Under the pieces are notes generated by a model. That model saw only the letters and a list, made by a program, of their open reading frames with translations. It ran no database searches and was not told the origin of the DNA. A stretch of 64,000 nt of DNA. Origin: Squalus acanthias. Its lineage: Eukaryota. A program made the position numbers and the translations under genes. Of this stretch, positions 4,484-64,000 are shown piece by piece. Position 1 is the first letter of the stretch; the number at the start of each line of letters is the position of its first letter. The DNA is taken from the NCBI GenBank assembly GCA_030390025.1, contig CM059432.1:73348001-73412000 (forward strand), given 5' to 3'.

Positions 4484-5627
4484 GAATCATAGAATCATAG
4501 ACTAGTATAGCACTGAAGGAGGACATTCGGCCCATCGAGTCTGCACCGGCTCTTTTGAAGAGCAATCCAGTTAGTTCCACTCCCCTGCTCTTTCCCCATA
4601 TCCCTGCAATTTATTCTCCTTCAAATATTTATCCAATTTCCTTTTGAAGGCTACGATTGAATCTGTATCCACCACCCTATCAGGCAGTGCATTCAAATCC
4701 TAACCACTTGTTGCATAAAAAAGTTGTTCCTCATGTCGCCTCTGGTTCTTTTGCCAACCACCTTAAATCTGTGCCCTCTCATTATCAACTCTTCATCCAT
4801 TGGTAACAGTGGGGGCAAAATTCGGTTGCTTTGCACTTATTAGGGCGCAAAGCAACTAATGCCCGGGTGCGGCGCCGCGAAATTCAGCAGGAGGTTAGCG
4901 GTGGCGGTAGCGCCCCGTGGCGCTGCACCTCCGGCGATGATGTCATTGCCGTGCGCAGCGCCCCGGCCGCAAACTTCGGTTGCGCACCCTAACTTACCGC
5001 CGGATGCTATGTCCGACAGGGTCAAGGGGGTGTACATGCAGCCGGGGGGGGGGGGCAATATTTAAAAGGGAGGTGACGGGTGGCCATTTTATTTGCTGGC
5101 CACCTGCCAGCACCTGCCCCCTCTGCCATCCACCCGCGGGGTGCCGGCTGCGATTGGGCAGCCCGGCATTCCTCTTGAGTGCCGGGCTCTTTTGCCGGCA
5201 CCCCGATCCCTGGTGGTCCAGGTGGGCCTCGGGTCGCTCTGCGCAAGGCCCCTCCCCTTTAATCAGGGAAGGAAGGCCTGTAGTAACGCGATGCGACGTG
5301 CCGGCATGCATGGCACTGTGGCACGTAGTGCCGTGATATTCCCAGGGAGCGCTCCAAGAGGGAGGGGGAGCGCTTCCAGTAGCGCCCTGCCTCCTTCTTG
5401 GGGCACTACAATTGAATTTTGGGCGCGGGGGCGTTAACTTTTTTGGGGCGCTAAAAGTAGCGCCCCGGCGAAGTTAGTGCCCCAAAGGGGACGCAACCAA
5501 ATTTTTGTCCCAGTTTCTCTTTATTTACTTTGTCTAAATCCTTCATGATTTTAAGCACCTCTATCATATCTCCTCTTAGCCTTCTCAGCTCCAAGGAGAA
5601 CAACCCCAGCTTCTCCAGTCTATCCAC
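4484..5627 (-). mobile_element. CR1-clade LINE 3' fragment, split by a MITE
   Basis: Starts with (ATAGAATC)-type tail repeats and the CR1 3' hairpin region. The RT C-terminal sequence continues seamlessly across the 4811-5511 insertion. Confidence 0.8.
4811..5511. mobile_element. Harbinger-type MITE, 701 bp
   Basis: Imperfect TIRs GGGGGCAAAATTCGGTTGC / GCAACCAAATTTTTGTCCC. 3-bp TSD AGT (4808-4810, 5512-5514). GC-rich with repeated TAGCGCC motifs. Confidence 0.85.
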
Positions 5628-25200: not shown

Positions 25201-27627
25201 CACATAGGCAGAAATTTTTTCACTAACTGTACTAAAGATATAAAGGTTTAATTAATGTGACTTTTGAATAACAGCTAGTGTAGTCAGAGAAAAAGCACAT
25301 TTTTTAATTGTTCTTACACTGTTAGGATCTATAATTCTTGGAGAAATTATTAACATTCAAGGATAGATTCGTGTAATGAGTTTTCACACAATAATACACT
25401 GAACATGCTCATTCTTAGAGGCAGTCAGTGAGGAATGTTTGTAATGCACAAATTATACAGTTAAACTATGAGATATGAGTGAAAAAAGGTTTTATTTCAG
25501 ATAGTGTAACAATTAATGGATAGCAGCAATGCTGGAAGACTTAATGAGATACATGTAGAATTATAGATGGTTAGAAGCTGCAATTTGGGAAAGATACACA
25601 TGACACAATAAACCATGAGGAAGAAGCTCAGGAGGTTCGTTGAAGGCAGATAAATCTTAAGATTAAACTGCAGCCTGTTGCCCACTCTCTGCCATCTATT
25701 TTTATAATATAGTGCCGTGTCAATAAAATGAAAACAATGCTAATGATTACAGCTAAAAGTAGAGCTAAAATTATATTGAATGAAAAGTGTGAGAGGCTAT
25801 TATGGTGACATCACTGAGCTGTCACATGCTTCACACTAAGGTATGATAAGTGAAACAACAAGGAGATTAAAATTGTAGTTTAGATTACATAACAATATTG
25901 TAATAATATAAATCTGCAAAATAACTATATTTGCCTAATATGATTCATGTTATCTGGTATAATGCAGCTCATGTTTCCAAAATATGTAAAGGTCAGTACT
26001 CTTTTTACTTACATCATCTGCCTTTTCTTGAAAACTTGCTTCAACTATTGTTCAAAAATGAATGCATTTCCAGGTTAGTTAACTATTATGTGTCCTATTT
26101 GAATAATAATGGTGATCGAAACAATGATACTGTGCCACTTTCTTCAACAGTGCATCAAACTAAAACAGCGTTCAGCGGGATAGAAATTGTGATGCATCTC
26201 GCACATTTTTGGGACTCAAAAAAGGCATCACAAAGTCGAATTCAAGAGCGCGACGTTATGCGCCGGAAAAGCAGTGGAAGTGCATCAGACGCCAGCAGTC
26301 ATCTGCAACAAACGTAGGCATCATTTAAATATTATAATTAGGGTCCAGCGCCTGAATCAGGACCCTTTTCTGGAATTGGAACGTCCTGCCGCCTGGTGGA
26401 TAGAAGATGCCCCTCCTCCTGCCGACCTCCTCCACTAAAACTTCCAAAGCAGTGTACGAAAACTGGGGGGTCCTTGCAACTTCTCCTGCACCTGCTGTTG
26501 TCCTCGGATAGTTGGCTGCAGCCTTTAAGAGGTGCAGGCTGCCTTTAACGACTGAAACTTCATGTCCTTATCCCAGCACGCCATGCAGAAATAGTAGAGG
26601 AGCAGCTCTCAGAAGCGGTATTTAAAGAGATCCTCACCTCTATTAAGATAAGTCTCTGGTTAGTGATTTTGGGTCAAATTTTTTTCTGCTTTGGCTACTG
26701 TTTGGCTGTTAAATAGTTTTGCAGGGTCTATTTGTGGAGGGCTACCACTGTTTCTCTGAACTTTCTTGTTCAGAATTGCTGAATATGGGAATGCTGCTGG
26801 GCTTATTATTGATGCTCCCAAATGACAAGGAGGAGCAGCAGCAAGGAAAGCAGCAAAGACCTGCATAGGCTGCAAGAAGAGGGCGCAGGAGACCATACAG
26901 CATGCGGGTTATCAGGAGCAGACAGCTGCATTTCACCAGGGAGACAGTTACTTACCTGTGCCACCTGTTGTAGCGAGAATTGGAGCCCAACACCAGGACC
27001 TGCATTGTACTGCCTGTGCCAGTGAAGGTCATCGTGGCTCTAAACCTTTATGGCTCTGGCTCCTTCCAAACTGCTTCTGGGGGCATCAGCAACATCAACC
27101 AGTTTGCTGTGCACTTGGCACCCAGCAGGTCACTGATAGAGTAATGATAGATATGAGTTGGGAAGCTTACCTTAACTATTCTCATGAGGTCATTGAACTT
27201 CCTGTATTGCAGCTATGTCCTGGGGACGATACATCTTGCATATCTGCCCATTGGTGCCTGGAAATCGTCCTGCCACCTGGTGGTTAGAAGATGCAGCGGG
27301 TGAAATTGGGTATCGCCCCGTTTGGGGTGCTAACTTTTGAAATTTTGAAAATTTAGCGCCAGGCGCTAAGGATTCTGAACTTTTACTAAATTGGGTGTTC
27401 GTGCCCCAGGAAGGATGTGGGGCGCTAAATCAAGTGCTAATAACCTCAGTGGGGCACTACAGTGGCGCTACCTGCAGAGTGCTAATGAATTTCAGGTGCA
27501 GTGCATTCAGCAATGATCCTTCACACTGGTTCCTTCCAGCTCTTAAAGGGGAGATTGCATCATTTTGCAGATGCTCATTTCCAGCATTGCTGGCTTTGAG
27601 GCGACCTGCGAGCAAGTGAATCCCCTG

Positions 27628-29640
27628 ATGGCTACGGCTGTTCTCACTCCCAGGGAGAGAGCTCGTCGGTTCACAGATGTGGCATTGGAGGCATTGGTGG
27701 CTGGAGTGGAGCGAAAGAGGGGAGTGCTGTTCCCGGCCACTGGAAGGAGGCCATCGCCTCAGGTGTTCAGGGCAATGTGGAGGAAAATGGCCCAGGAGGT
27801 CTCAGCCAGTAGTGTGGTGGAACGCAGCCAGACACAGTGCCGCAAGAAATTCAACGACCTCAGTCGGGTGGTCAAGGTGAGTACATGCTTCAGCAGCTCC
27901 TACATACCAGCATCTGAACCTCAGTCTGTACACACTGCGCAAAGAACCACACCGCCACCACTCACCCACCAAACATCTTCACCTACTCAAAACTCACATC
28001 CACATCTCACGCCTTGCCTACAATCTCAGCTATTCAACGACAGCAGGCATATCTCCCAAACATATAGCTGGACTCTGACTCACACACATTCGTTTCTCCT
28101 GCTCCCCTGCACTCACCTTAACGCGAGTGTTGTGCCTTTATGCTTTCAGATATTCAGCAACCAGATGACCAGCCTATCCCTGAGCCTCCCACTGAGACTG
28201 AGGAAGGAGAAGAGGAGGAAGAGGAGCAAAGCACCGCGTCACTGCATCTCTCACCCACAGGCACCACCTCAGATACTGGCACTACGCGATCTTTAGAGGC
28301 AAGTTTAGTAGAGGGGTCTGCACTGGGTGATGCACCGGGGACAAGTGGGCTGCAGCAAGGCCAGGGGGAGAGGGTAGTTTGGGAGGCAGCTCCCCGGAGG
28401 GCAAGTTCTGCTGCACAGGACTCAGATGAGAACCTCGATGGGGAGACGTTCACAAGAAGGGTGATGGCCATGCACACCGAGATGATAGGTGCAATGACAT
28501 ATGAAGAGAGATTGGGTCAATTGGGCTTATACTCGCTGGAGTTTAGAAGAATGAGAGGGGATCTCATTGAAACTTATAAAATTCTGACAGGACAGGACAA
28601 ACTAGATGCAGGAAGGATGTTCCCGATGGTGGGGGAGTCAGAACCAGGGGTCACAGTCTAAGGATAAGGGGTAAGCCATTTAGGACAGAAATGAGGAGGA
28701 ATTTCTTCACCCAGAGAGTGGTGAACCTGTGGAATTCTCTACCACAGAAGGCAGTTGAGGCCAATTCATTAAATAGATTCAAGAAGGAGTTAGATATATT
28801 TCTTAAGGCTAAAGGGATCAAGGGATATGGGGAGAAAGCAGGGACAGGGTACTGAATTTGGATGATCAGCCATGATCGCATTGAATGGCGGAGCAGGCTA
28901 GAGGGGCCGAATGGCCTACTCCTGCTCCTATCTTCTATGATTCTATGATTCTATGTCGAGGGTGCCCGAGAGCCTCTCGGCAATGGTAAGCAGCGTGGAG
29001 GAATCTGCCTCCAAGATTGCACAGAGCTCTGCGCACACCATGGAGCCCATCATTTCCACTGTGCAGAGGATAGTGGTCTCCCAGAGAGATTGTGCGGATC
29101 CAGACCTGATGCCGCGTGTCATGGGCGATGTGGCAGCTTCCATTGCAGCACAGGCCGAAGTGACACAATGTCATAGTGCTGTAATGCAGTCAATGGTTGC
29201 TGCCATCGAGTCTCAGACTGCTCTCATGCAGTCTCAGCTTGATGCCACGAAAGCACTGACTGCTGCCATCGTCGCTGGGTCCACCACAGTCCACCGGTAA
29301 TTTCACGGTGTCGCAGCAGGCCAGCAATCTGTGCTCCAGCAGTTTGATAGGGATGCTGAGGTGCTGCCCCAGGGGAGTGGGAGTGGGTCAGTGGAGCAGG
29401 AACCTGCTGTCCTCTCTCAGGATGACAACATTCCTGATCCCACGACTGCCATTGCACTTGTCGCTGCCTGTCATCCAGCCAGCCCAGACTGCTGCCACCC
29501 AAAGCTGGTCGAGGGCGTCCTGCAAGGCTATCTGTAGTCTCTGGCACCGACACTCAGCAGTCTTCCACCAGCCCTGCCGCAGCCACTGGGGAGACACTAC
29601 GTAGGAGCACTAGATTAGGAAAGGGGACTGTAAAGAGAGG
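27628..29640 (+). pseudogene. Myb/SANT-like Harbinger accessory gene (copy C), missing exon 2 and interrupted by CR1
   Basis: Exon 1 at 27628-27876 (RARRFTDVALEALV...W...QCRKKFNDLSRVVK|GTGAGT). Exon 3 starts at 28150. CR1 insertion at 28494-28955. Confidence 0.85.
28494..28955 (+). mobile_element. CR1 LINE 3' end (5'-truncated)
   Basis: MTYEERLGQLGLYSLEFRRMRGDLIETYK, ending in (TTCTATGA)n. Very similar to 60330-60790. Confidence 0.92.
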
Positions 29641-29833
29641 AGGCAAAGGTTTGCTCGAGGGTGATTAGTCACTATTGCTGTTGTATATATGTGGTTAATG
29701 GTTTTTGATAAATTTATGACTGGAATGTTGCAGATTTGATGCTGTGTCTCATTTCAGTTTTGGGGTGTGGTTTGGAATCACAAAGTGATGGAATGATGGC
29801 GACGTGCTCAGCAACCGGAACGAGGACTCGAAG

Positions 29834-31020
29834 TCACTGGAAACGAAGTCTGATGAGGCGGTCACGGACCGACCTTGCAGAATGCCGATTAAATGGCTGC
29901 CTCCTCCGTCGCTGCTGTTCATCCTCCTGTTCCTCCTGCTCGTCTTCTTCCTCCTCCTCCTGCTCCTCCTGAGGTGGTGCGGCTATGCCTGGTGACAATG
30001 GCTGCGCCCTCATAATGGCCAAGTTGTGCAGCATGCAGCAGACGATGACGAAAAGTGACACCCGCTCAGCCAAGTACTGGAGGGCTCCTCCCGAGTGGTC
30101 AAGGCAGCGGAACTGTTGCTTGAGCACTCCGATGGTCTGCTCAATGATGTTCCTGGTGGCAGCATTGCTCTCATTATATGAGTGCTGGGCACGAGTGTTG
30201 AGGTTGCGGCGGGGAGTCATGAGCCAGGTGGAGAGCCATGATCCAGGTGGAGAGTGGATAGCCCTTGTCTCCCAGCAGCTAGCCGCAAGCTTCATGTGGT
30301 GGCTGGAACAGGTCTGGCACACTGGTCTGGCGCAGGATGAAGGCATCATGGTGCTGCCAGGATAGCGGGCATTGACGGTCAGGATTCGTCGTGTGTGGTC
30401 GCACACCAACTGCACATTAAGTGAGTGGTAGCCTTCGCAGTTATGGAAAATCTCAGGATTGTTATGAGCTGCCCGCAAAGCGACGTGGGTGCAGTCAATG
30501 GCGCCCTGCACCATGGGGAAGCCCGATATCCTGGCAAAGCCACATGCTGCTCGTGCTGCTTCTCTCTGGTCATGGGGAAGGAAATGTAATCTCTTCTCCT
30601 TCTGTACAGAGCATCTGTGACCTGGCGGATGGACCAATGGACGGCAAACTGGGAGATGTTGGAGATGTCGCCTGTCGCACACTGGAATGATCCGCTGGCA
30701 TAGAAATTAAGGGTGACGGTGACCTTGACTGCCACTGAGAGAGCCCTGGTGGTCCTGATCTCAGGCTCGAGGTCTGGCTGCAGGAGGTGGTAGAGCTCTG
30801 TGACTACGTCCTCGCTGAAGCGGTGCCTTCTAATACACTGGTCCTCAGTGGAATTCATGTAGGAGAACTGCTGCCGGAATACCCTGGGTGGGTAAGGCCT
30901 CCTGTTGAGAGCCCTGTTGACCCTCCTACCTCTGGCCACATTTTGCACTCTTTCTCTGTGCCTCAGTTGCCTCCGACGTTGATGCTGGAGGGCGAGGTCC
31001 AGTGCCAGTACAGCCCCCAT
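29834..31020 (-). pseudogene. Harbinger DDE transposase (copy C), frameshifted
   Basis: MGAVLALD...AVKVTVTLNFYASGSFQ; GAIDCTH; IIEQTIGVLKQQFRCLD; VCCMLHNLAI. Spread over several frames. Confidence 0.92.
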
Positions 31021-32324
31021 GGAAGGATACAAATATTGCACTTTCAAATTTCGCCTCAATGAAACTCAATAATCTTTATGTGCCAGAACACTCGCTAAAT
31101 GCAAAACGTGCAAATCGTTCAAAGGCCTCTTTGCCAATGTGAAATTAACAACGCAGCATTGTTGGCCGACAAAAACGACACCGGAAGTGGACACCTTTAA
31201 ATAGCGCTCCTCTAAGGGACACCCGACTGAAAGCCGCCTCCTCTACCTCTCGTTGTTCATCCGGGGCGCTGCGCACGGCAATGACGTCACGATCTCTGGG
31301 CGCAACGTCTTACCGCCGCCGGAGGCACTAAGGGGAGGTGCAAAGGAGCCCAATTTTTAGCCCGCCATGTCCGAAAACCAGGAAGTCCTTGCAGCTTCTC
31401 CTGTGCCTGCCGTTGTCCACGGATAGTTGGCTACAGCCAAAGTGCATCTCTCTTTTAAGAGGTGGAGGGTGCCTTTAAATCGCATCAGGAACATGAGGAA
31501 TTGACGCCCCCCCCCATCTGGTGAGCTGCCAATCAACAGCACAAGTAACGTTAGCAGTCCACCTATATTATTTTAATTTACGAGTTGCTTGAATTTGGGG
31601 TCTTCTTTTGGGCCATGTGATCAGGCGCAGCTCCGAGCGCGAGGTCCATTGTGAGCACGAAAATGCACTCAACGCAATTTCTACCCCATCATGTACTACT
31701 GCACATACAGACGTGAATACCAGCTCTACTCAAAAAAACAACTAAATTCTGTTTTCTGTATATTATATAAAACAAGTGCAGATATCACAAGCAGTAATTT
31801 CTAGCCTCGTGACATTTATTTTTGTTTAATTGGAGAAGGCCACTGGTGACATTTATACTTTTTTGGAATCACATGATCAGCATATGTAGTTGATTGGAGA
31901 ACAGTTTATTTAATATTTCCTGACAACAAAGGCCAATATGAAAGAAAGGTTAAACTTTGGAGAAAATGAAACACAGGACATTTGCTTCTGTAAGAAATGC
32001 TAAGGTATCAAGGCAATAATAAATCAAACTTTCATCAGTATCATGACTCCTAACTTTTTGTCAACAACAAAAATAACATTTCTTTAAAATGTTTAAAAAA
32101 CGACTTTAATTTTTTCATGGTATAAATTATTGCAATTTTTTTGTGGAGCTTATTGAATGTATTCATGTTTGTCTGTGCTGTAATACATAATGAGTGCTGT
32201 ATTTTGATGGAATATTGGAGAAAAGCATTTTCCAATACTGGAGTATCTGATAACTGGAGAGGATATCTATTATCTGTAAATATCCTGAAGACAGCATTAT
32301 TATCACTTTTTATTATTTGTTCAC

Positions 32325-36550: not shown

Positions 36551-36592
<42 letters not shown>

Positions 36593-36639: not shown

Positions 36640-37385
36640 GTCTTCAGCCTGACTGACAATGATGTGCTGCTGCAACAAAGCACCTCCCCTTTAAGTAGTG
36701 CAGAGAGCCGAGGCCAACCATTGCTGGCCATTAGACTGCACCTGACATTGGCCAACCTGCTGAGCGCTAAGTCAATCAGCAGCGTGTTTAGTGCTGAGAT
36801 CAGCACTCCAATCATTATAATGAGCAGGCAGCACGAATTTTGCGTGCTGCCTGGACCACTTTCAACGAGCGCAGGCAAATAGTGCTGGCCATTGACACCA
36901 CCCGTTTTCAGGCCTAATCCAATTTTTAGGCCTGAGTCTTTCAAATGGTGCTTAGCAGCCAATGCCTGTGCATTCCAATTTACTTACTGCACAGATCTGT
37001 TTGGAAGAAATGGTGATTAAGCAGCTCATTAACTGCCCAAGAAGTGTGAAACTCAGCATAAACTCAGTAGAAGTATGCACTGACTGGTTGTTTTCTATTG
37101 GGTGAGATTATCACATTTGTGGGGCATGAATCTGACCAGAGGAACCTCAGAGACACCTGCCAGTTTGATGGACAAGTGATACTCACACACAGAAATAGTT
37201 GAACTTTCATGATTATTTCTGGAGGATGAAAATATAACGTTAAGTATTTCAATTAAAATGTATCCTCGTCTGGGTCAATATTTTCCAGATTCAGGACTAA
37301 ATTTGAACTGAAACGGAAATGCTCATTTCGAAAAATTATTGTATTTTGTATGCGAGACCTTCAGAACACTTGTACAATTTACAAT

Positions 37386-38897: not shown

Positions 38898-39611
38898 GGG
38901 GGAGAAATTCATTATAGCCTCGTTTGGGCGCTAACTTTTAAAAGTTTAGAAAATTAGCGCCAGGCGCTAATGTTTCTAAACTTTAAAAAAATTAAGTTTT
39001 GCTAAAAGCGCTCACTTCCTTCCTGGAGCGCAATCGTCAGCAGGCGGGGCGGAGACTTCAGCAGCGTTGCACACTGGGCCGTGCAGCGCTGCTGCGTTCA
39101 AAGGCTCCTTCCCTCCCTTAAAGGGAAGGGCCATCGCTGCAGGCTCTGCAATAGAAAAAGTACCTACCTGGACCACCAGTCACGATCCCATGCGATCAGC
39201 CCAGCACTCAAGCAGAGTGGAGGGCTGATTGATCGCTGGCAGGAACCCGCGAAAAAAACTGGAACAAGAAAGGTAAGTTTTTTTTTACTTACCTCGGCCA
39301 CCTCGCCTTTAATCATCGCCCCCGAAGCAGCCGGCTGCCCAATGCATGCCTCCTGCAGCTGTCGGTGTTTTCGACCGGTGCTGCTGCAGGGGGCGGAAGT
39401 CAATTTCGGGTTTGGGCGCTACCGGGGCGATGCGCACGGTGATGACATCATGATCTCCGGGCGAAGGAGATCGGGGTGCAACGCCGTAGCGCCACCGGAA
39501 AACTCCCACCGAATATTGTGGGAGTCGATGTCAGTGCCGCGCCCGATCGCAAAGCTACTTGTGCCCCATTAGCGCCGGGCGCGAGGCACAAATGCACCCA
39601 ATTTTACCCCC
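38898..39611. mobile_element. Harbinger-type MITE, 714 bp
   Basis: TIRs GGGGGAGAAATT / AATTTTACCCCC. Exact TSD CAA (38895-38897, 39612-39614). Carries TTAGCGCCAGGCGCTAA. Confidence 0.9.
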
Positions 39612-42424: not shown

Positions 42425-42464
42425 ATAGGGGGGGGGGGAGGGTCCCGGTGGAGAGAAATTTAGA

Positions 42465-45429
42465 ATGCTAAAGAGAAAAGACAAGGAAGCATTGCAGGAA
42501 AGTGATTGGAGTAAGGATAACCAGATTGTATCAGGAAGGGACAGAGTGTACAAACAAAAGAGTGCACTAACAAATAGGGTCCGGGTAAGAAAAAATGGTA
42601 ATAAGACAAATAGGGCCATATTACCAAAAAATGTTAAGATGTCTAAAAATGCTAAGAAGACAAATCTAAAGGCACTGTATCTGAATGCACGAAGCATTCG
42701 TAATAAGGTAGACGAATTAACAACGCAAATAGATATAAACGGATACGATATAATTGCAATTACGGAGACATGGCTGCAGGGTGACCAAGGCTGGGAGCTG
42801 AATATCCAAGGATATTCGATATTTAGGAAGGACAGGAAAAAAGGAAAAGGAGGTGGGGTGGCGTTGTTAGTAAAAGATGAAATCAGAGCAATAGTGAGAA
42901 AGGATATTGGCTCAGAAAATCAAGATGTAGAATCAGTGTGGGTGGAGCTAAGAAGCACCATGGGGCAGAAAACATTGGTGGGAGTTGTCTATAGGCCTCC
43001 AAACAGTAGTGGTAATGTAGGGGATGGCATCAAACAGGAAATTAGAGATGTATGTAACAAGGGTACTACAGTAATCATGGGAGACTTTAATCTACATATA
43101 GACTGGCCAAACCAAATTAGCAATAATACTGTGGAGGATGAATTCCTGGAGTGGGTACAAGATGGTTTTTTAGACCAGTATGTTGAGGAGCCAACAAGGG
43201 AACAGGCTATCCTAGATTGGGTATTGTGCAATGAGAAGGCGTTAATTAATAATCTTGTTGTGCGGGGTCCTTTAGGGAAGAGTGACCATAACATGATAGA
43301 ATGCTTCATTAAGATGGAAAGTGAAGAAGTCCAATCCGAAACTAGGGTCCTAAATCTAAACAAAGGAAACTACGATGATATGAGGAGTGAGTTGGCTATG
43401 ATAGATTGGGGAGCTTCATTAAAAGGCATGACGGTGGATAGGCAATGGCTAACATTTAAGGAATGAATGCATGAATTGCAACAGTTATACATTCCTTTCT
43501 GGCGCAAAAACACAAAAGGAAAAGCGGGCCAACCATGGCTAACAAAAGAAATTAAGGATAGTATTAGATCCAAAGAGGAGTCATATAAAGTTGCCAGAAA
43601 AAGTAGCAAGCCTAAGGATTGGGAGCAGTTTAGAGTTCAGCAAAAAAGGACCAAGAGATTGAGTAAGAGAGGAAAAATAGAGTATGAGAGTAAACTTGCA
43701 AGGAACATAAAAGTGGACTGCAAAAGCTTCTACAAGTATGTAAAAAGAAAAAGATTAGTGAAGACAAATGTAGGTCCCTTACAGTCAGAAACGCGAGAAT
43801 TTATAATGGGGAATAAGGAAATGGCAGAGCAATTAAACAAATACTTTGGTTCTGTCTTCACGGAAGAGGACACAAATAACTTCACAGAAATGCAAGGGAA
43901 CCAAGGGTCTAGTGAGAAGGAGGAATTAAAGGAAATTAGTATTAGTAAAAAAATAGTGGTGGAGAAATTAATGGAAGTGAAAGCTGATAAATACCCAGGG
44001 CCTGATAATCTGCATCCCAGAGTACTAATAGAGGTAGCCATGGAAATAGTGGATGCATTGGTTGTCATCTTCCAAAATTCAATAGATTATGGAACAGTTT
44101 CGGCAGATTGGAGGGTGGCAAATGTAACCCCACTATTTAGAAAAGGAGGGAGAGAGAAAACAGGGAACTACAGACCGGTTAGCCTAACATCAGTAGTAGG
44201 GAAAATGCTAGAGTCTATTATAAAGGGTGTGATAACAGGACACTTAGAAAATATCAACGGGATTAGACAAAGTCAACATGGATTTATGAAAGGGAAATCG
44301 TGTTTGACAAACCTACTGGAGTTTTTTGAGGATGTAACTGATGGAATAGATAAAGGAGAACCAGTGGATGTGGTGTATTTGGATTTTCAGAAGGCCTTTG
44401 ATAAAGTCCCACATAAGAGGTTAGTGTGCAAAATTAAAGCACATGGATTGGGGGTAATATACTGGCATGGATTGAAAATTGGTTAACAGACAGGAAACAG
44501 AGAGTAGGAATAAATGGGTCTTTTTTGGGGTGGCAGGCGGTGACTAGTGGGGTACCGCAGGGATCAGTGCTTAGGCCCCAGCTATTCACAATATATATCA
44601 ATGATTTGGATGAGGGAACCAAATGTAATATTTCCAAGTTTGCTGACGACACAAAACTAAGTGGGATTGTGAGTTGTGAGGAGGATGCAAAGAGGCTTCA
44701 AGGTGATTTAGACAAGTTGAGTGAATGGGTAAATACATGGCAGATGCAGTATAACGTGGATAAATGTGAAGTTATCCACTTCGGTAGGAAAAACTAGAAA
44801 GGTAGAGTATTATTTAAATGTTGATAGATTGGGAAATACTGATGTACAAAGGGACCTGGGTGTCCTTGTACACCAGTCACTGAAAGCAAACATGCAAGTG
44901 CAGCAAGCAGTTAGGAAGGCAAATGGTATGTTGGCCTTCATTGCAAGAGGATTTGAGTACAGGAGCAAGGATGTCTTACTACAGTTGTTCAGGGCCTTGG
45001 TGAGACCACACCTGGAGTACTGTGTGCAGTTTTGGTCTCCTTACCTAAGAAAGGATATACTTGTCATAGAGGGAGTGCAGCGAAGGTTCACCAGACTGAT
45101 TCCTGCGATGGCAGGACTGTCGTATGAGAGGGGATCTCATTGAAAGGTATAAAATTCTGACAGGGCTAGACAGACTGGATGCAGGGAGGATGTTTCCCGT
45201 GGCTGGGGGGTCTAGAACGAGGGGTCACAGTCTCCGGATACGGGGTAGGACATTTAGGACTGAGATGAGGAGAAATTTCTTCACTCAGAGGGTGGTAAAC
45301 CTGTGGAATTCTCTACCACAGAAGGCTGTGGAGGCCAAGTCACTGAATATATGTAAGAAGGAGATAGATAGATTTCTAGACACAAAAGGCATCAAGGGGT
45401 ATGGGGAGAGAGCGGGAATATGGTATTAA
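42465..45429 (+). pseudogene. CR1 ORF2 (APE endonuclease + reverse transcriptase), with a few stops and frameshifts
   Basis: [51 protein letters not shown]. Stop at 43464, frameshifts near 44450 and 44795, short deletion near 45130. Confidence 0.93.
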
Positions 45430-46323
45430 GATAGAGGATCAGCCATGATCATATTGAATGGCGGAGCAGGCTCGAAGGGCCAAATGGCCTACTCCTGCTC
45501 CTATTTTTCTATGTTTCACTATCTATCCCACCTGGGTGCTGATTTCTGAGCTGGTGCTTTTTAAAGATGGAGTGGGTAGTGAGGCTGTCTTGGCTCGCTA
45601 TATTCTTCAGGAGGTGATGATTCTAGGAACATAGGAACAGGAGTAGGCCATTCAGCCCCTCGAGCCTGTTCCGCCATTCAATGAGATCATGGCTGATCTG
45701 TGACCTAACTCACATACCCGCCTTTGGCTTATATCCCTTAATACCTTTGGTTAACAAAAAGCTATCAATCTCAGATTTAAAATTAACAATTGATCTAGCA
45801 TCAATTGACGTTTGTGGAAGAGAGTTCCAAACTCCTACCACCCTTTGTGTGTAGAAGTGTTTCCTAATTTCACTCCTGAAAGGTCTGGCTCTAATTTTTA
45901 GACTATGCCTCCTAGTCCTAGACTCCCCAACCAGCAGAAATAGTTTCTCTCTATCTACCCTACCTGTCCCCCATAATATCTTGAAAACTTCGATCAAATC
46001 ACCCCTTAAACTTCTAAATTCTTGGAAATACAACCCTAATTTGTGTAATCTCGCCTCATGATTTAACCCTTGAAGTCCGGGTATCATTCTGGTAAACCTA
46101 CGCTGCACTCCCTCCAAGGCCAATATATCCTTCCTATGGTGGTGCCCAGAACTGCTCACAGTACTCCAGGTGTGGTCTAACCAGGGTTTTGTATAGCTGC
46201 AGCATAACTTCGACCCCCTTGTATTCTTGTCCTCTAGATATAAAGGTCAGCATCCATTAGCCTTTTTGTTTATTTTCTGTACCTGTTCATGACATTTTAA
46301 TGATCGATGTACCTGGACCCCTA

Positions 46324-48663: not shown

Positions 48664-51619
48664 GTTGTTTGTATCTTTCCCATCTGCCAGGATCTGTGCT
48701 ATTTTTTGCATTTTTGTATGCTTTTTCTTTTAGTTTTATGCTGTCCCTTACCTCTTTAGTTGTCCACGGCTTTTTTTTTTGGCAAGTAGAGCTCTTGCCC
48801 CTCAGGGCTATAAACTGGTTCTGTATCACCTTAAATTCTTTTTTGAACATCTCCCACTGATCTTCTGTCATTTTACCCATTAACAGATTTACCCAGTTTA
48901 CTGTGGGCAGTCTCTGCCTCATTCTGCAGATTCTGCAGAAGGACCTGCCAATAGAAGAAAGGAACAACAATTATTGAATACTGGGCAGGTTAGGGAGGCT
49001 TAGACATGTGGAGTGGTGAGGCATCTTAAGTTTGGCCAGCTCCCTGAAAGAGCTGCACATCGAGGACAGATAAAAGAAAAGGGACAAAGGCAGAGACCTC
49101 CATCTCTGACACTCTGAGGGAAGCCTGTGCTCACAATCTCCAGGGCTTCCTGCTCCATGGAACTGAGGGCTTGAATGGAAGCTGTCCCTCGTTCTGTTTG
49201 CATCTGCTCCTGGGTATGATGTGCCAACTTGTCCTGCAGAAAGGAGGTGTGGTTCCATCAAAGGATTGGGAATTTGTGATAGGCCTGCTGATGTGTGCAT
49301 GATGAGTGTGACATGCAGCAAGCAGTGTGCAGGATGGGGAGGTGTCACGGAGCAGGAAAGTGACAGGAAGGTGAGATTTGCTGTCCAATACAAGTAGACT
49401 GCATAGATTTCCCTGTGCAACCAGGAGACAGTAATATGCTGCATGTGCTTGCTGTGAGGGCAACAGGAACTGCTCACGGGGAGCGATCTTCTGGTGTGTA
49501 CTACCAGCAGGTGCGCACATTTGGAAAATTGGCCTTTGTTGGGGAAGCTGTACATTGTACAAGATGAGATAATGAAGACAAAAGTGCATAAGATTTTAAT
49601 CTAAAATTTTATCTGGAAAAGGGTGTGAAAAGGTTCCCCAAGTGCAATAGTTAGTTGAAAATGCATTACTTCACTGTGTCTACTGATACTTATAAATGGT
49701 GCATTGCAATATTTAATAAGAACTGCAGCAAAAGAAGGTTAACAATATACCATTTTCCAACACTACAATTTGTTTCTCAAATAGGCTGGAATTCAACTAC
49801 TTGAGAAAATCGGCATTATTATCACTAATATGCCCTCTTAGTCTGTAATGGTTTCAGGAAGCTGCACCACAGGATCTCATTACTCTATGCCAAAGTGCTT
49901 TTAATTAACACTGGAGCTCATTTTAGATATAAATTAACTTCTGGTTAAGAAAAAATTACAATTAAAATACTTCCTTTAACCTATATTTTTCTGGCTGTTC
50001 TTCAGCATATCAACTGATGGATTAGAAACTGGTCTATGTAAAGGATCATGTTTAAAAGCTTGCACCTTTGCCATCTAACAATCCTTTTAAGTTTAAAAGA
50101 GAAAAATAATACACCAGTGGAGCATAGATCTGACTCTGAGATCACTTGATTATGTTTTATAATGGCTGATTTATAAAATTTGAATTTTAGCAGTAGATCA
50201 GTACTATAGAGAGTGTGGCCTCAATTTTCACGGGGTGGGGGGTGGGGGAGGGGGAGTGGTGGCAGGAAGGTTCCAGGGAGCCCGGTAGTAATTTGCATAG
50301 TAAAGCAGCCTATTTCAGGTGGACAGCTGACTCGCCCATTTAGAGGCCCACCTGAATGTGCCATGAATATGATGTTAATGGGCCGGCTAAAGTGCCCCCC
50401 GATTTCTAACTCCTGGTCACCCGTTTGTTATGGACAGCCGTGATTTAACTTTTTCTCCCAACATCTTTACAGCGTAAAAACTGTATAGTGGATGGTGAGC
50501 TATGCATCTGTATAGGATAGTAGGAGGGTTAGCAATGCATCTGTACAGGGTGGCAGATTATAGTAGAAGGTTAGCAGTGTCTGTACAAGAAAGTGTTGGT
50601 GCTGTAAATGATTAGTTGTGTGTCTGTGTAAGGCCTTTTACTAATCTTCTTACCTCTCTGGAGTCATATTAATGCACTAAAATATTGTCACAATCAATCG
50701 GAACAATGGTGCAATGAGAATTATCAGTCATAATCCCTCAAACCAGTTTCGTGGGTATCCCTTAACACTGGGACTACTTCCCAGATCCTAGTGCCAACAC
50801 TGACCTTCTACCATCCTTGTGGCATTCACCCACTGACTCATGGAAATGAGATGGAACAACAGCCAACAAGCCTGTTGCCATCAGGTGCTCCAGGGCACTT
50901 GAGCCAGGTTGGCAATTGTGTGTCACACATACTGACCAAAAGCAGGTTCAGAAGTTTCCTACAATCCAAAAGGAGGCAACAAGTGATATGTCAATCTCAA
51001 GATCATTCATTTTCATTCACAGCAATGTACAAAAAATCTAAAAATACTTTACAAAGGAAAAAAATTACCACAATTACATTGAACAAAGACATACAGATCT
51101 CAGAAGCACTCAGGGGAAACTTTATAAACCCTTGATTTAAAAGTAATGGTGGGGTTTGCCCACGATTGGTGGCATTCATTCACAGGCATGCAAAAAAAAT
51201 TATGTTCTTCAAAAATAGATTGAGCCAGGATAAATGTATAGGGATTTTCTGCATTAAAGTTGGGGTAGAAATTAGGTCGCGCCCCATTTGGGGCGCAAAT
51301 ATCGTCCGCGCGCAAATATTAGCGCCTGGCGCTAATTATCGGCACTGACAGGAAACTTCACTTTTACCGCCCCGGGAGGTGAGTGGAGCGCTAAATTAGG
51401 CGCTGCACACCTCTCTTAAGGCGCAAAGGCCTAGGAGTGAGGCGCTACCTCAGCGCACGAGCGCAGCGCAGCTGCTGCCAGTTAGCGAGGGAACACAGAC
51501 ACACTGGCGCCGGACACTTCTTAAAGCGGGGGGGGGCCACTTGCTCCCCAGCCACACCCTGCTCATTGCAGCCTTCAATCTCAGCCTGGAGAGACCTGTA
51601 ATCCATTTTGCTGCCAAGC

Positions 51620-53529
51620 ATGGAGAGGGTGAGAGAACGCGCTCATCGCTTCACCGAGCGGGCCTTGGATGCTCTGGTTGGCGCAGTGGAGCGCAGACGA
51701 TGCATGCTGTTCCCGGAGAGTGGCAGGAGGCCTTTGCCATGCGAGTTCAGAAGAGTGTGGAGGGAGGTGGCTCAGAGCGTCTCCTCCAGGAGCATGGTGC
51801 CCAGGACCCATGTTCAGTGCCGCAAAAAATTCAACGACCTCACTCGGGTCGTCAGGGTGAGTGGCTTTTTCTCAATACCTCTCCATCCCTCCATCTCAAC
51901 CTCACTATATGGCCAGAGGGTCTTAAAACCCCAATGCACAACACTCATGCAACACCTATGGCCCTTTCATCAAACACACACACACATTCCACACTTTGCA
52001 TACAGTAAGGGCTATTCACCTATGGGAGGCACATCAGGCAAGACCATGGCTGCATATTGTAAGGGCTATTCACCTATGGGAGGCACATCAGGCAAGACCA
52101 TGGCTGTATATTGACTCAGATGCTGTCCTTTTTCTTGCAGGCTAAGCTGGCTCATAATCGGAGACAGCAGCAACGGACGGGTGGAGGGCGGCTTCAGCTG
52201 CAACCCCTCAGCGATCTGGAGGAGCGCGTCCACAGGATTGTGGCAAGCCGGGTGATCGGTCCCGTCGCCACTGGGGACGCCGACCCCGTTGTGGACAGCA
52301 ATGGTAAGGTCATCACCTTTTTGTCCTCTGTCCTTCCACTTGTCCCTCACAATACCAGCCTTTGACACTTTCAATCCAACTTGCTAACTCGCTGCACTTA
52401 TTCCTCCCTTACTGCCACCCTGTCCTCACGCTAAAGCCACTCTTGTACCTCCCTGCTTTCAGATGGTGATTCACCAGCTGAGGAGATGGTCCCTGAAGCT
52501 GCCACTGGGAGTGATGCTGCAGCTGAGGAGGAAGAGGAAGCCGGAGCATCAGTGCCACCCTCTCCCGAGGAAGCCCATGGCCACACTGGGAACACGCCTT
52601 CCCCGGAGGGGAGCAGGGGGGAAGGGGCTGATGATGGTGAAGCTCCAGGACCCAGCGGGCTGCAGCAACGCCATTGGGGGGGGAGGGAAGAACGGGGGAG
52701 CAGGGGGGAAGGGGCTGATGATGGTGAAGCTCCAGGACCCAGCGGGCTGCAGCAACGCCATGGGGGGGGTAGGGAAGAACGGGGGCCTTCTCCCCAGAGG
52801 GAGAGTATGCCAGACACTCCTACTGCAATGGACGCAGAGGAGGAGCGGTTCATTGCAGAAATGAACACCCAGGCGGTGGGCATGCACACTGAGCTCATGG
52901 GTGCAGTGGGAAGGGTGCCCGAATGCATTGAGGCACTGGCAAGGAGTGTGGAGCACTTCGCTGTAGCACAGGCGGATGCCACACTAAAGCTTAGTGCTGC
53001 AATTCAGTCACTGGCTGCCAGGAACCCATCTGAGACTGCTCTCATGCAGACTCAGATTGAGGCCACGCGAGCACTGACTGCTGCCATCCTCGATGGTTCG
53101 TGCACATGTCCCCGGGGCTGTCACCGCGCCGCAGCAGGCCAGCAATCTGTTCTCCGGCAAATTGCTCCGGATGCTGAAGTGCTGCCCCGTGGGAGTGCCA
53201 GTGTGTCGGGCGAGCAGGGAGTTGCTGTCCTCTCTCACGATGACAGCATTCCTGCTGCCAACACTGTCACTTCTCCACTGCACTTGCCACCGCCTGTAGG
53301 ACAGACTGCTGCCGCCCATGCAGAGTTGGTGCAGTCTGCAGCCGGGCCCTCCAGGCCCAGAAGTGGTCGAGGCCGTCCTTCAGGGGCATCTGCAGTGTCA
53401 GGGTCTGACAAGCAGCAGCCTTCCACCAGCCTTGCTGCAGCCACTGAGGTCCCATTACGGAGGAGCAGTAGGGTTAGAAGGGGGGAAGTGCGCAAGGGAA
53501 GGAGATCACCCTCGAAGGGCAAAAAGTAG
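51620..53529 (+). CDS. Harbinger Myb/SANT-like (trihelix) DNA-binding accessory protein, 488 aa; exons 51620-51856, 52141-52303, 52463-53529
   Basis: ATG at 51620. Intron 1 GTGAGT...TTGCAG (phase 0), intron 2 GTAAGG...TTTCAG (phase 1). Spliced length 237+163+1067=1467 nt with no internal stop. N-terminal RAHRFTERALDALV...W.EVA...QCRKKFNDL; basic C-terminus RRSSRVRRG. Confidence 0.88.
52005..52113. repeat. 54-bp tandem duplication in Myb intron 1
   Basis: GTAAGGGCTATTCACCTATGGGAGGCACATCAGGCAAGACCATGGCTG.. at 52005 and 52059. Confidence 0.92.
52608..52785. repeat. 87-bp in-frame tandem duplication in Myb exon 3
   Basis: GSRGEGADDGEAPGPSGLQQRH(W/G)GGREER occurs twice (29 aa). Confidence 0.92.
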
Positions 53530-53823
53530 GAGGTGTGCCAAAATGCTGGTCATTTTTTTATTAAAGGCCGAGGTTCATGGCCCAACTTTTGTTTAGTGTT
53601 TTGGACATTATCTCCAGGTTGTGAGAACCAGTTATGTTATTGACTGTTTTTTTGTGTTTATTTCTATGAGTTTGTCATGAGGAATTGACACACACAGAGT
53701 TTGTACAATAAATAAGTTTCTGTATTCAAAATATACATGGCTGGTGGTTGGAATTATTGGTGCCTTGGCCGGCTTAGGGGTTGCGTGCTGGGTTGATTCG
53801 TGTTTGTAGCAATGGCAGGGGCC

Positions 53824-54984
53824 CTAGAAGCGGCTTGCTATTAGTCGTTGACGGACGGCCCTTGCAGTTTGACCATTGTGGGCCGCCCTCCTGCCTTGGT
53901 GCTGCTGCTGATCATCGTCCTCGGCCTGTTCCTCCTCTTCCTCCTCCTCCTCTTGTGGTGCTGCAAGGCCTGGTGGCATTGGCTGCGTCCTGAGGATTGC
54001 CATGTTGTGCAACATGCAGCACACCACTACGAATTTGGAAACTTGCTCAGGCGAGTACTGCAGGGCTCCTCCGGAATGGTCCAGACAGCGGAATCGTTGT
54101 TTGAGCACGCCGATTGTGCGCTCAATAATGTTCCTGGTTGCTTGTTGGCTTTCCTGGTACCGCAGCTCAGCAGGGGTGTTTGGCGCACGGAGCGGTGTCA
54201 TCAGCCAGGTGCTCAATGCGTACCCCTTGTCCCCCAGAAGCCAACCAACTGGCTGATGCGGTGCCTCGAAAATTTCTGCCACAGTACTCTGGCGCAGGAT
54301 GAAAGCATCGTGGCAGCTGCCCGGATAGTGGGCATTGACAGCGAGAATCACCTGTCTGTGGTCACAGACCAACTGCACATTCAAGGAATGGAACCCCTTT
54401 CTGTTCCGGAACTCCTCTGCATTCTCTCGCGGAGCACGCAAAGCCACATGCGTGCAGTCAATGGCGCCCTGCACCATGGGGAAGCCCGCTACCCTCGCAA
54501 AGCCCATAGCACGGTCATGCTGCTTGTCTGGGGTCATAGGGAAGGAGATGAAGTCTCGTCTCCTTGTGAAGAGGGCATTGGTGACCTGCCGGATGCAGCG
54601 ATGCACCGCAAACTGGGAGATATTGGCGAGGTCCCCAACAGCAGCTTGGAATGAGCCAGTGGCGTAGAAGTTCAAAGCCACTGTGACCTTCACTGCCACC
54701 GACAGAGACGTCCTGGACCTCAGCTGAGGCTGCAGATCTGGCTGCAGCAGGTGGCAGAGCTCAGTGACCACCTCCTTGCTGAATCGCAGCCTTCGCAAAC
54801 ACAGCTCCTCGGACATGTGGATGTAGGAGAGCTGTTCACGATATACCCTGGGAGGGTAAGCTCTCCTGTACATGCGCCTGATGGCCCTCCTCCGTCTGGC
54901 CATCATTGCCACTCTCTGTCTGCGTCTCACTATCCTCCGATTGAGCTGGAGCAGGACGACGCCCCCAATCATTGCAGCCCCCAT
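53824..54984 (-). CDS. Harbinger (HARBI1-like, DDE_Tnp_4) transposase, 386 aa, intact
   Basis: Single uninterrupted ORF. HTH region (LRFSKEVVTELC...VALNFYATGSFQ), catalytic motifs GAIDCTH, LLGDKGY and IIERTIGVLKQRFRCL, plus YPGSCHDAFIL and VCCMLHN. Confidence 0.95.
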   Translation of the reverse strand: MGAAMIGGVVLLQLNRRIVRRRQRVAMMARRRRAIRRMYRRAYPPRVYREQLSYIHMSEELCLRRLRFSKEVVTELCHLLQPDLQPQLRSRTSLSVAVKVTVALNFYATGSFQAAVGDLANISQFAVHRCIRQVTNALFTRRRDFISFPMTPDKQHDRAMGFARVAGFPMVQGAIDCTHVALRAPRENAEEFRNRKGFHSLNVQLVCDHRQVILAVNAHYPGSCHDAFILRQSTVAEIFEAPHQPVGWLLGDKGYALSTWLMTPLRAPNTPAELRYQESQQATRNIIERTIGVLKQRFRCLDHSGGALQYSPEQVSKFVVVCCMLHNMAILRTQPMPPGLAAPQEEEEEEEEQAEDDDQQQHQGRRAAHNGQTARAVRQRLIASRF

Positions 54985-55179
54985 ATTCTCTTTGCCAGAA
55001 AAGTAATGAGGTACAGCAACGAAAGTAGCAGCAAAGTTAGGATGAACTAGGCAAAACTACCTCACAAAGCGTTGAGTCACTGTAGAAGTCTCTCTCTCTC
55101 TCTCTCCGAATCTCTCTCTCTCTCTCAGAACGAGTGGTGCATAAATGTCGACCACAGAAAAAGACAGGAAGAGGCCCCC

Positions 55180-55324
55180 TTTAAATAGCGCCCCCCCCAG
55201 CCCCACACCGATTGATAACGTTCCAGTCTTCCGGTCGTTGGAAGAGCCAGGCGGTAAGGCAGGGGGCGCCACTCAATTTCCGCTCCGGGGCGCCCCAAGG
55301 GCGTTGCACCACGGAATGACGTCA
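55180..55324 (-). promoter_or_regulatory. Putative transposase promoter: CRE (TGACGTCA) + TATA-like GCGCTATTTAAA
   Basis: TGACGTCA at 55317-55324 and TTTAAATAGCGC at 55180-55191. The same pair lies upstream of the transposase in copies C and D. Confidence 0.5.
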
Positions 55325-55916
55325 CAATCTGCGCGCGCAGGTGGTCGCAGCGGTAAGTTTTAGCGCCGCCGCACAATCTCAAGTTAAGTTCTCGAGCGGC
55401 GCAAACAGCGCTGCGCCCGGGCGTTAGCGCCTTAACGCCCCATTAGCGCCCTCTTAAGGCGCTAACGGGAGGCGCAACCAACTGAATTTTTACCCCAAAG
55501 AATTGGGATTTGCATTTTCTGCTTAAATGGATTATATGCACATTTTGCATCTGGGTGAAAGCTTTCTCTGGTGCCATTGAAGAAATTAAGTATTGCATAT
55601 TATAAACTCCTTAAAATATACAGTTTGAAATTGTTGTTTTGGAACTTCTTACCACAATTGGTATCCAATCACTTACCCCAATCTAATATTGTACTTTACC
55701 CTTCGATGCACCTGCATGCATACATGTGCTGTATAATTGGTCCTTCATGCTTATTCTATGTGAAAATATATGTTTTGCTGAGTGAGATGTAAATGTAAAA
55801 TTAAATGGGTGTGGCAGAATTTCCCAGCCAGTAGTGTGGAGTTCTAGAGTCAGGCAACTCCAACCTGATTCTCAGGCAAGTACTGTAACTTCATATAACT
55901 GTTAGGGGGAAAAGCG

Positions 55917-61690: not shown

Positions 61691-64000
61691 ACTCTGTGAT
61701 GCAACGAAGAATCTGAAAAAAAATCTATTGCTGAAAAGTGATGTGAGAGGAGTGGTGGAGCCTGAGCAACTACTGCCAAGTGATTAATTTATTCTATAAC
61801 TCAGTAAAGTGTATAATTTATTATATAATTAAGTTTAGTGTTTTATTAATTAATTAAATGTGGGGGGATAAAATTAAAATTAACTAAATAGAGGATAATA
61901 AATTTAAAGGGATCTGAATTTAAAAAAGGAGCCCCTAATTTTAATTTAATTTTAATTAAATCATTAAATAAATAAAACAGGGTGCAGGTGGTGTGCCTCA
62001 ACTGCAGCATGTGGTCGTTTGTGGTGAGCATCGCGATCCCGGATGACCTCATCTGCAGTAAATGTCTGCAACTCGAGGAACCTCAGCTCAGAGTTGTTAG
62101 GCTGGAGTCTGAGGTTGAGACATTGCGGGGCATCAGGGAGAGGGAGAGTTACCTGGACACTTTGATCCAGGAGGCAGTCACACCCTTTAGATTAGGTAGT
62201 GGTACAGGTTTGGCTAATGGTCAGGGACAGGAGGGTGTGACTGCAACTCAGGCAGGTAAGGGGACCCCAGGTGGAGCAGCCTCAGCCTTTGCCCTTGTCC
62301 AACAGGTACGAGGTTCTTGCTGCTTGTTTCTGGAAAAGTGATGTCAGAGGAGTGGTGGAGCCCGAGCAACTACTGCCAAGTGATTAATTTATTTTATAAC
62401 TAAGTAAAGTGTATAATTTATTATATAATTAAGTTTAGTGTTTTATTAATGCGATGTCAGTGGAGTGGTGGAGCCCAAGGGCAATGTCTGCATGGTAGAT
62501 GAGCAAATAGACTACAGCACCGTGGTACAGGAGGCCATTCAAGTTGAGGGGGTGAAAAGGAATGTTGTAGTGGTCGGGGACAGTATAGTCAAGGGAATAG
62601 ATACTATTCTCTACAGCCGCGAGCGGGAGTTCCAAAAGTTGTGTTGCCTGCCCTGCTCTCCTCGCGGCTGGAGAAGAACTTGGAGTGGGAGGGAGATGAT
62701 CCAGTTTTTGTGGTCCTCGTAGGAACCAATGACATAGGTAGAACTAGGAATGAGGTTCTGCTGAGGGAGTTTGAGGAGCTAGTGTCAAAATTAATACGCA
62801 GAACCTCACAGGTAATAATCTCTGGAATGTTACCTGAGCCACACGCAAATTGGCATAGGGACAAAAGGAGAAAAATTCGGTTGGTTAGTGCCTCCCGTTA
62901 GCACCTCTGGTGCCGCTCGTGAAATTGACCAGATGTTTTGCAGTGGCGCTAAACACTACCAGCTCAATCTCCTGCGCCCGGAGATCATGACATCAGTTGA
63001 GTGTGCAATGCCCCGGTAGTGCCCCGGACCGGATATTGAGATGCGCCCCCTGCCTTAGCACCTGCTAGTAGGAACGACAGGTAGAGGGGAATGTTTTCAA
63101 GTCAGGAAGGGGCTGGGGGAGCGCTATTTAAAGGCGGACGCTTCCTGCCTTTACTTGTTGGCAAAATTTTTGGTACACACAGGTTGAGAGGGAGAGAGAC
63201 GTCTGGAGAGATTTAACGCTGTCCTAAGGAGTTTTGGCTCTTAGCATTGAGGTTCCTAAGCGCCGAGCTCTCTCCCTGGGCCTATCCATTAGTGCTTCCA
63301 ACACAATTGCTTTAGAGGTCTCTCCAGGCCGAGATTCAAGGCTGCAGGTAGCAGGGTGTGGCTGGCCAGCAAGATGGCCCCTCCCCTTTAAGAACTGGAC
63401 AGTGCCAGTCTGTCTGGCTTCCATGGTAACTGACGTCGCCTGAGCTTCGGTAGCATTCTGAGGTAGCGCCTCGCTCCTTGACGTTTGCGCCTTAAGAGAG
63501 GGGTGTAGCGCCTGATTTACCGCTCAAATCACCTCCAGGGGCGATAGAGGCGAATTTTGCAGTTGGAGGCGATAATTAGCACCGGGCGCTAAACTTTGTG
63601 CCTGGCCGATATTAGAGCCCCAAAATGGGTGATACCCAATTTTTCCCCCAAACAAATTAGAAGGTTAAATGCATGGCTAAAAGAGTGGAGTGGGAGGCAG
63701 GGGTTTCGATTCATGGGGCATTGACACCAGTACTGGGAAAAGAGGGAGCTGTTCTGTTGAGTCAGGCTCCACTTAAACCTGGCTGGGACCAGTGTCCTGG
63801 CAAATCAAATAACAAAGGCGGTAGATAAAGCTGTAAACTAAGGAAGGGGTGTGGGAGGATTCAGGAAAGGTTAAATTCAAAAGCAGTAAGAGAAATGTCA
63901 AGGCTGTAGAGCAGAGTAAAGATTTGGGTAAAAATAAGCAGAGTTGGTCAGAAGGGACAGAGAGCATAACTCAGGTAATAGGGCATGAGACACTAAGGTG
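61691..64000 (+). mobile_element. 5' portion of a CR1 LINE (5' UTR + degraded ORF1), running off the window
   Basis: VCLNCSMW...CSKCLQLEE; VVVVGDSIVKG; LVGTNDIG. Homologous to ORF1 at 41470-42424. Confidence 0.85.
62866..63649. mobile_element. Harbinger deletion derivative (MITE), 784 bp, related to copies C/F
   Basis: TIRs AGGAGAAAAATT / AATTTTTCCCCC. Exact TSD AAA. The right end aligns (reverse) to 51262-51450. Retains the Myb start MDRPRERARR (-) and GCGCTATTTAAA. Confidence 0.9.

Follow-up and report, generated by a model that had tools for sequence, protein, structure and literature searches.

Arrays of an 8-bp motif at the ends of Harbinger transposons in Squalus acanthias are probable landing sites for a Myb-like partner protein

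In a 64,000-bp stretch of the Squalus acanthias genome (GenBank assembly GCA_030390025.1, contig CM059432.1, positions 73,348,001 to 73,412,000; hereafter the window), we analyzed the two-gene Harbinger transposon F, which encodes a DDE transposase and a Myb-like partner protein, together with its relatives. A 17-bp palindrome near one end of F had been proposed, from the letters alone, to be the cis recognition site of the partner. Our analyses revealed that the recurring unit is an 8-mer, and not the 17-bp palindrome. We consider it likely that the element ends carry landing sites for the partner, in the form of an array of 8-bp sites that the partner would bind before recruiting the transposase. 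In this proposal, GGCGCTAA (last base A or C) is arrayed at fixed distances from the 12-bp terminal repeat, and each 8-mer would be bound by the Myb/SANT (trihelix) domain encoded in exon 1 of the partner gene. Several copies of the partner may load on each end, and the loaded partner may recruit the DDE transposase, which would cut at the terminal repeat. The palindrome would then be simply the tightest inverted pair of the array on the Myb-gene side.

The 8-mer is confined to element ends. The window contains 16 exact copies of GGCGCTAA, and every one of them is at most 260 bp away from an end of one of five related elements, namely the two-gene elements C and F and the gene-less MITEs (miniature inverted-repeat transposable elements) A, M and G. 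The 2600 bp of these ends thus contain 16 copies, as compared to none in the remaining 61,400 bp; when one mismatch is allowed, the counts are 46 in the ends and 26 in the rest of the window. For the 8-mer TTAGCGCC, 16 matches were observed where 0.78 were expected, and the highest 8-mer count reached in 300 pooled shuffles was 6. In shuffles of the individual ends, which preserved the local composition and the CpG richness, the observed number was reached by 0/1000 in C, M and F and by 1/1000 in G, while the enrichment was weak in MITE A (49/1000); for the 7-mer, it was reached by 0/1000 in all five elements.

The sites also occupy fixed positions. On the Myb side, and at the matching MITE ends, they lie at offsets 31, 48, 58, 67, 75, 103, 126, 138, 159 and 180, with each offset occupied in at least two and at most all five of the ends. 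The offsets on the other side are 20, 32–33 and 47, with more sites further in. They occur at both ends and in both orientations, and most of them are single or direct repeats. Even the MITEs, which have no genes, retain the sites at both ends.

The palindromes described in the sequence-only reading were all found: TTAGCGCCWGGCGCTAA has perfect matches at 27353, 38954 and 51319, and the form at 63576, TTAGCACCGGGCGCTAA, departs from it at two positions. The pattern has four matches in the window, versus none in each of 100 shuffles. The distances of 57, 57, 56 and 57 bp given for them agree with the element ends at 51262 (F), 27296 (C), 38898 (M) and 63649 (G), and the half-sites reported at the other end of F are present as well (Table 1). 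However, the parse into 7 bp, CWG and 7 bp is misleading. The structure is 8+1+8, because the C and the G that flank the centre are parts of half-sites that occur singly elsewhere. The CWG centre is incidental, since the pairs at the other end differ in spacing and most of the sites are single or direct. The palindrome corresponds to the pair at offsets 58 and 67, with a gap of 1 bp. At the opposite end, pairs inverted with the same polarity are separated by 7 bp in F, 6 bp in C and 8 bp in M. Given this variable spacing, we infer that one domain recognizes one 8-mer, rather than that the pair is an obligate dimer site.

MITE A, which the earlier reading had missed, is informative in this respect. 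Its Myb-side end keeps the sites at 31, 48, 58, 75, 103, 126 and 180, but not that at 67: the first half-site matches at 8/8 positions, and the second (67–74) at 1/8. As its terminal inverted repeats (TIRs) and its target-site duplication (TSD) are intact, MITE A speaks for the half-site and against the palindrome. It also bears on the alternative in which a partner dimer recognizes the whole 17-bp palindrome as one dyad, with a role apart from that of the single 8-mers. The pair with the 1-bp gap is indeed found at the same offset in four of the five ends, across subfamilies with flanks only 37–40% alike, and the palindrome bin has the highest summed contig depth in the public run X1. Nevertheless, the depth peak lies elsewhere in runs X6, X10 and X16, the pairs at the other end are spaced differently, most sites stand alone, and MITE A has lost the second half altogether, so that a dyad site appears improbable. 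The proposal of a cis recognition site is therefore retained in part. The motif lies only at element ends, at both of them, and is kept in gene-less MITEs and in diverged subfamilies; the 17-bp palindrome as the site is not retained, as the 8-mer is what recurs, with a spacing of 1 versus 6–8 bp, and MITE A does without the palindrome.

The three-exon open frame of the 488-amino-acid (aa) partner was borne out, with splice sites predicted from GT/AG signals. Its exon 1 encodes a Myb_DNA-bind_5 domain (PF13873, E 3.3e-08), which is predicted to fold into a three-helix bundle of the Myb/SANT type (mean pLDDT 86.7). In fold comparisons, the model matched the TIP60-complex chain 9caf (Z 8.9, root-mean-square deviation (rmsd) 2.5, 66 residues aligned), the Zeste–DNA structure 5cqq (Z 8.3, rmsd 3.0, 70 aligned) and GT-1 2jmw (Z 7.9, rmsd 3.8, 66 aligned). 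Zeste was also the first row in Foldseek, as a weak match (E 0.26), and a score of 0.88 was obtained for the atlas cluster "Regulatory protein zeste family". No relative of the domain emerged when solved structures were searched by sequence. Among 146 candidates for longer proteins carrying the domain, one matched, and the two-copy fold of exon-3 residues 130–225 scored 0.02. Exon 3 also contains an 87-bp tandem duplication (52608–52785; 98% identical over 91 bp) that keeps the frame. The transposase gene of F is open as well, and its product belongs to DDE_Tnp_4 (PF13359, E 5.2e-38). It has 532 relatives at 1e-30, and among the best 120 of these 532 the top matches are shark and ray proteins annotated as "putative nuclease HARBI1", with up to 66% identity among the matches listed.

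That the partner reads the 8-mers is suggested by the analogy with zebrafish Harbinger3_DR, on which partner binding and transposase recruitment are both modelled, and by the likeness of the predicted fold to Zeste and GT-1. The 8-bp unit fits such a reader, since Myb/SANT domains are described as reading 6–8 bases (PMC9921582). The sites might instead be read by the transposase, or by a host factor such as an E2F-like protein or a domesticated Myb/SANT protein, which would aid transposition or drive the two divergent promoters located near the ends. All of the positional and conservation results fit any end-binding protein, and the palindrome is upstream of the partner gene, 285 bp from its ATG. 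In addition, TTTAGCGC is one base off the E2F consensus, TTTSSCGC. This consensus, however, has two matches in the window and none in the element ends, and the gene-less MITEs retain sites that a promoter role would not need. PIF transposases are predicted to contain a helix-turn-helix, but in this superfamily DNA binding has been demonstrated for the Myb partner only, both according to PMC9710019. We therefore regard a reader other than the partner as unlikely.

Another possibility would be that the inverted pairs form DNA hairpins or cruciforms, or that they reflect plain GC-rich sequence rather than words read by a protein. Folding of the first 100 bp exceeds that of shuffled sequence in M (z −5.05), in A (z −3.40) and at the other end of F (z −3.54). 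Furthermore, another inverted pair (48/58) makes a stem in A, and the mobility of mPing is reported to track GC content (PMC9921582). Against this, no excess folding was observed in F, G and C (z −1.12, 0.04 and −1.11), and none of seven pairs has changed on both sides across the five ends, a comparison of low power. The exact word is preserved, and many of the sites stand alone or form direct repeats. We find structure or composition very unlikely as the explanation.

The sites are well conserved. In an alignment of the five Myb-side ends (A, C, M, F and G), the half-site at 58–65 is invariant in 5/5 ends (pairwise identity 80/80), including the end of MITE A, which was left out when the motif was defined, and a column permutation gave P 0.0016 for the longest invariant run. 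The pairwise identity is 65/80 for the site at 31–38 and 49/80 for that at 67–74; in the flanks, it amounts to 78/190 (39–57) and 122/260 (75–100). Between subfamilies, 15–17 of the 17 palindrome positions match, while the identity of the flanks drops to 37–40%. For both F versus C and F versus M, the palindrome matches at 16/17, and the columns outside the motif at 25/63 and 23/62, respectively.

We also aligned contigs of four public runs to positions 51202–51561 (4038, 849, 30 and 32 contigs). Across these runs, 33 places in the first 300 bp of F vary at 5% or more, none of them inside the palindrome. The claim that the motif is better conserved than its surroundings thus stands with respect to the adjacent flanks (0/17 versus 11/40 variable places, one-sided Fisher p 0.013). 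The direction of variants was followed at 11 sites marked on F, which contain seven variants: four of them change the site towards the motif (48, 81, 144 and 187), and one is neutral (106).

Several results weigh against the ends as an array of partner landing sites. Only five ends were aligned, and they are mutually related. In the public contigs, offsets 1–37 vary no more than the palindrome does, and the claim of better conservation does not hold within the first 300 bp as a whole, where 33 of the remaining 283 places vary (p 0.13). The contig test reaches only sequences with 80% or more likeness to F, is depth-weighted and favours conserved words, and because of these biases its support is of moderate strength. 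Two of the seven in-site variants move off the motif, at 38 and, with 68% in run X1, at 49. The fold matches of the partner model are middling and tied, with the TIP60-complex chain on top. The recognition helix encoded by element E is nearly identical to that of F, yet the ends of E lack the exact 8-mer, and thus the helix and the motif do not simply co-vary; these ends instead carry four AG(CG/TG/CA)CTA sites, an AG-variant that was picked after inspection. Finally, for rice mPing and mPong, PMC9921582 reports that no common internal sequence promoting transposition was found, and arrays are therefore not universal in the superfamily.

The small number of related elements, and the equally invariant terminal 37 bp, are also what would be seen if the repeats were a neutral relic, formed by local duplication in an ancestor, shared by descent and functionless. 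The half-site, however, stays at 8/8 while the flanks of the subfamilies drop to 37–40% identity, and the sites lie in both orientations, at both ends and with unlike spacers. A relic of this kind is accordingly highly improbable. The idea that the palindrome mimics a CWG-centred target site, as in Harbinger3_DR, and acts as a decoy or self-insertion site deserves almost no credence: its central 15 bases match AAACACCWGGTCTTT at 8/15 by eye, including CCWGG (PMC3016246), but none of the seven delimited elements has a CWG TSD or is located in such a palindrome, the bases adjoining the centre are half-site bases, and the centre in G is C/G.

The ends of elements B and E (1040 bp) contain no exact 8-mer and two sites with one mismatch. 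The sites of E include offsets 20 and 33, as in C and G, and the Myb-side end of B carries three YGAG(CG/TG/CA)C sites, also picked after inspection, a number reached by 4/1000 shuffles. The AG-variant in E and the YGAGCGC-type word in B are leads only. They allow the rather doubtful conjecture that shark Harbinger partners keep a Zeste-like code with the core AGCG, retuned in each family, to give TTAGCGCC in the F/C family, the AG-variant in E and YGAGCGC in B. The fixed offsets would then provide a phased scaffold for a two-protein transposition complex, and the sites may have become host regulatory sites. If this were true, a very abundant family that has spread over several shark-type genomes would have seeded sites throughout the genome, which a domesticated Myb gene of the shark might use as regulatory DNA of the host, and F, with both frames open, would be a testable native vertebrate element that needs no reconstruction.

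The elements were delimited by a TIR scan and a check of the flanking triplets. All seven (A, B, C, E, M, F and G) have 12-bp TIRs, and 10 of their 14 ends start with GGG (Table 1). Exact 3-bp TSDs flank four of them (A, AGT; E, TGA; M, CAA; G, AAA), B and C retain two of three bases, and F has none. The base preceding the TSD is a pyrimidine in six elements, and the base following it is a purine in five. The DDE_Tnp_4 transposase, the Myb/SANT gene, the TIRs and the 3-bp TSD place the elements in the PIF/Harbinger-type (PHIS) superfamily.

Table 1. Coordinates of the elements, genes and sites in the window
Feature	Position	Strand	Description
Palindrome	51319..51335		Two head-to-head 8-mers, 51319–51326 and 51328–51335, 1 bp apart; offsets 58–74 of F
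Myb-side 8-mer array of F	51292..51448		Offsets 31, 58, 67, 103, 126, 159 and 180, within one mismatch
Myb-side array of F, more degenerate sites			Offsets 48, 75 and 138
Transposase-side 8-mer array of F	55250..55465		Offsets 32, 47, 58, 66, 92, 130 and 240 from the transposase-side end
Transposase-side array of F, exact 8-mers	55360, 55424, 55443, 55458		Inverted pair with 7-bp gap
Element F	51262..55496		Harbinger transposon of 4235 bp with two genes, each with an open frame; unlike triplets GTT/AAA on either side
F Myb-side TIR	51262..51273	+	12 bp
F transposase-side TIR	55485..55496	−	12 bp, 11/12 matching
Myb-like partner gene	51620..53529	+	Predicted exons 51620–51856, 52141–52303 and 52463–53529; 488 aa
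DDE transposase	53824..54984	−	386 aa from first Met
Element B	26177–31687		Older Harbinger with decayed Myb gene; C nested inside
Element C	27296..31363		Decayed two-gene relative, nested in B; palindrome 27353–27369
Element E	33337–36932		TSD TGA
MITE M	38898..39611		714 bp, TSD CAA; palindrome 38954–38970 inside a longer AT-rich inverted repeat
MITE G	62866..63649	−	Relative of F with an internal deletion, 784 bp; palindrome variant at 63576–63592; TSD AAA
MITE A	4811..5511	−	701 bp, TSD AGT; fifth member

The triplets flanking F (51259–51261 and 55497–55499) are unlike despite the open frames and the matching TIRs; F may have arisen by recombination between two copies, or may have suffered a flanking deletion. 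Its end at 51262 is confirmed by the loose ends of 64 contigs at this position, with a consensus agreement of 0.41. At 51454–51490, the contigs of all four runs carry a different sequence, with loose ends and a dip in depth, and F departs here from the common form of the family. Element C is inserted in the decayed Myb gene of B. In MITE M, the palindrome centres an inverted repeat of about 22 pairs (38940–38985; z −5.05), of which a weaker trace is seen in C. The context of E, AAAAC-TGA-GTCTT, resembles the flanks of the Harbinger3_DR target, and its TIRs are of perfect length.

MITE A is surrounded by the fragments of a further decayed two-gene Harbinger (1964–8770), with the Myb gene at 8477–8280 and later exons to 2434, and a transposase piece at 1964–2062. 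CpG-decayed copies of the motif lie at 8603, 8629 and 8735, upstream of this Myb gene. Elsewhere, a G/A-rich tandem array with a 13-bp unit forms two blocks (55850–57450 and 60750–61800) around a fragment of a CR1/L2-type long interspersed element (LINE), which is about 80% like the LINE at 41900–45500.

At least half of the sampled words of F are present in 16 of the 24 public runs listed, which span seven coded organism labels, and run X8, whose contigs total about 1 million letters, contains 64% of them. This suggests that the F family is very abundant and widely shared. Searches of metagenomes for the transposase gave no confirmed locus out of 595 pattern matches, and the patterns that combine the element end with the palindrome gave no locus in the metagenome, viral and prokaryote collections. 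A survey published in 2022 reported no Harbingers in the elephant shark and called for more species (PMC9179366); our analysis adds their abundance in sharks.

The proposed mechanism would be the one described for Harbinger3_DR and is not new, while the sequence of the motif differs. Subterminal motifs of Harbingers from sharks were the subject of no paper found in the full-text literature, in a search that did not use the motif as a term and had Repbase, Dfam and subscription journals outside its scope. The motif words were absent from the supplementary files covered for PMC4482050 and PMC9179366, although these files may not include any sequences of elements. According to PMC9710019, only one element has a Harbinger partner for which sequence-specific binding to the ends was demonstrated. 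With another motif, different from the first and clearly mapped by position, and with a partner gene whose frame is intact, one could test directly how the specificity of the partner is set, which sites must be present at the end of a minimal vector, and what DNA was originally recognized by the vertebrate Myb/SANT genes that have been domesticated.

Among known systems, the classical PIF/Harbinger group is described as duplicating TWA (PMC13668399), which is found in none of the four exact TSDs here. The NuwaI group of the PHIS superfamily is reported to have a CWG TSD, TIRs of 12–61 bp starting with GGG, two open reading frames and a length of about 4.5 kb (PMC4482050). The present animal elements share the TIRs of at least 12 bp, the GGG start, the two frames and a length of about 4.2–4.5 kb, but none of the four exact TSDs is CWG on either strand. 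In rice, the Myb domain of ORF1 and the transposase together mobilize MITEs of the mPing/Ping/Pong group (PMC9921582, PMC2836001), with a TTA/TAA TSD that is unlike those of the elements described here.

Among host proteins, Drosophila Zeste is a regulator and not a transposon protein. It shares the Myb/SANT-like domain, with 14–18% identity to the partner domain, and its reported site YGAGYG (PMC10379775) differs from TTAGCG by one base (position 2). The five elements of the F family contain 0, 0, 1, 4 and 3 YGAGYG sites, an enrichment that is not clear (29/1000 shuffles at best). NAIF1, MSANTD1-4 and MYPOP are described as domesticated vertebrate Harbinger Myb genes (PMC9392472), and motifs determined by systematic evolution of ligands by exponential enrichment (SELEX) exist for MYPOP, MSANTD1 and MSANTD4 (PMC11601247). 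These genes have their origin and domain class in common with the partner, and differ from it as fixed host genes.

The closest parallel is Harbinger3_DR, whose word differs from that of the F family. GCGTACGC, which we take to be the motif bound by the Harbinger3_DR Myb protein, has no match in the window and is self-palindromic, whereas the F-family word is non-palindromic and yields palindromes only by pairing. The same word is shared by the end probes L1, R1 and R2 of Harbinger3N_DR that are listed in a supplement of PMC5339849. The Myb protein of Harbinger3_DR is reported to bind a 9-bp subterminal motif (PMC9710019) and to bring about nuclear entry of the transposase (PMC9710019, PMC2836001, PMC9392472). 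While the TSD is CWG in Harbinger3_DR and variable in the elements described here, both systems combine genes for a DDE transposase and a Myb-like partner with GGG-starting ends and a 3-bp TSD, and both repeat a short motif of 8–9 bp in the subterminal DNA of the two ends.

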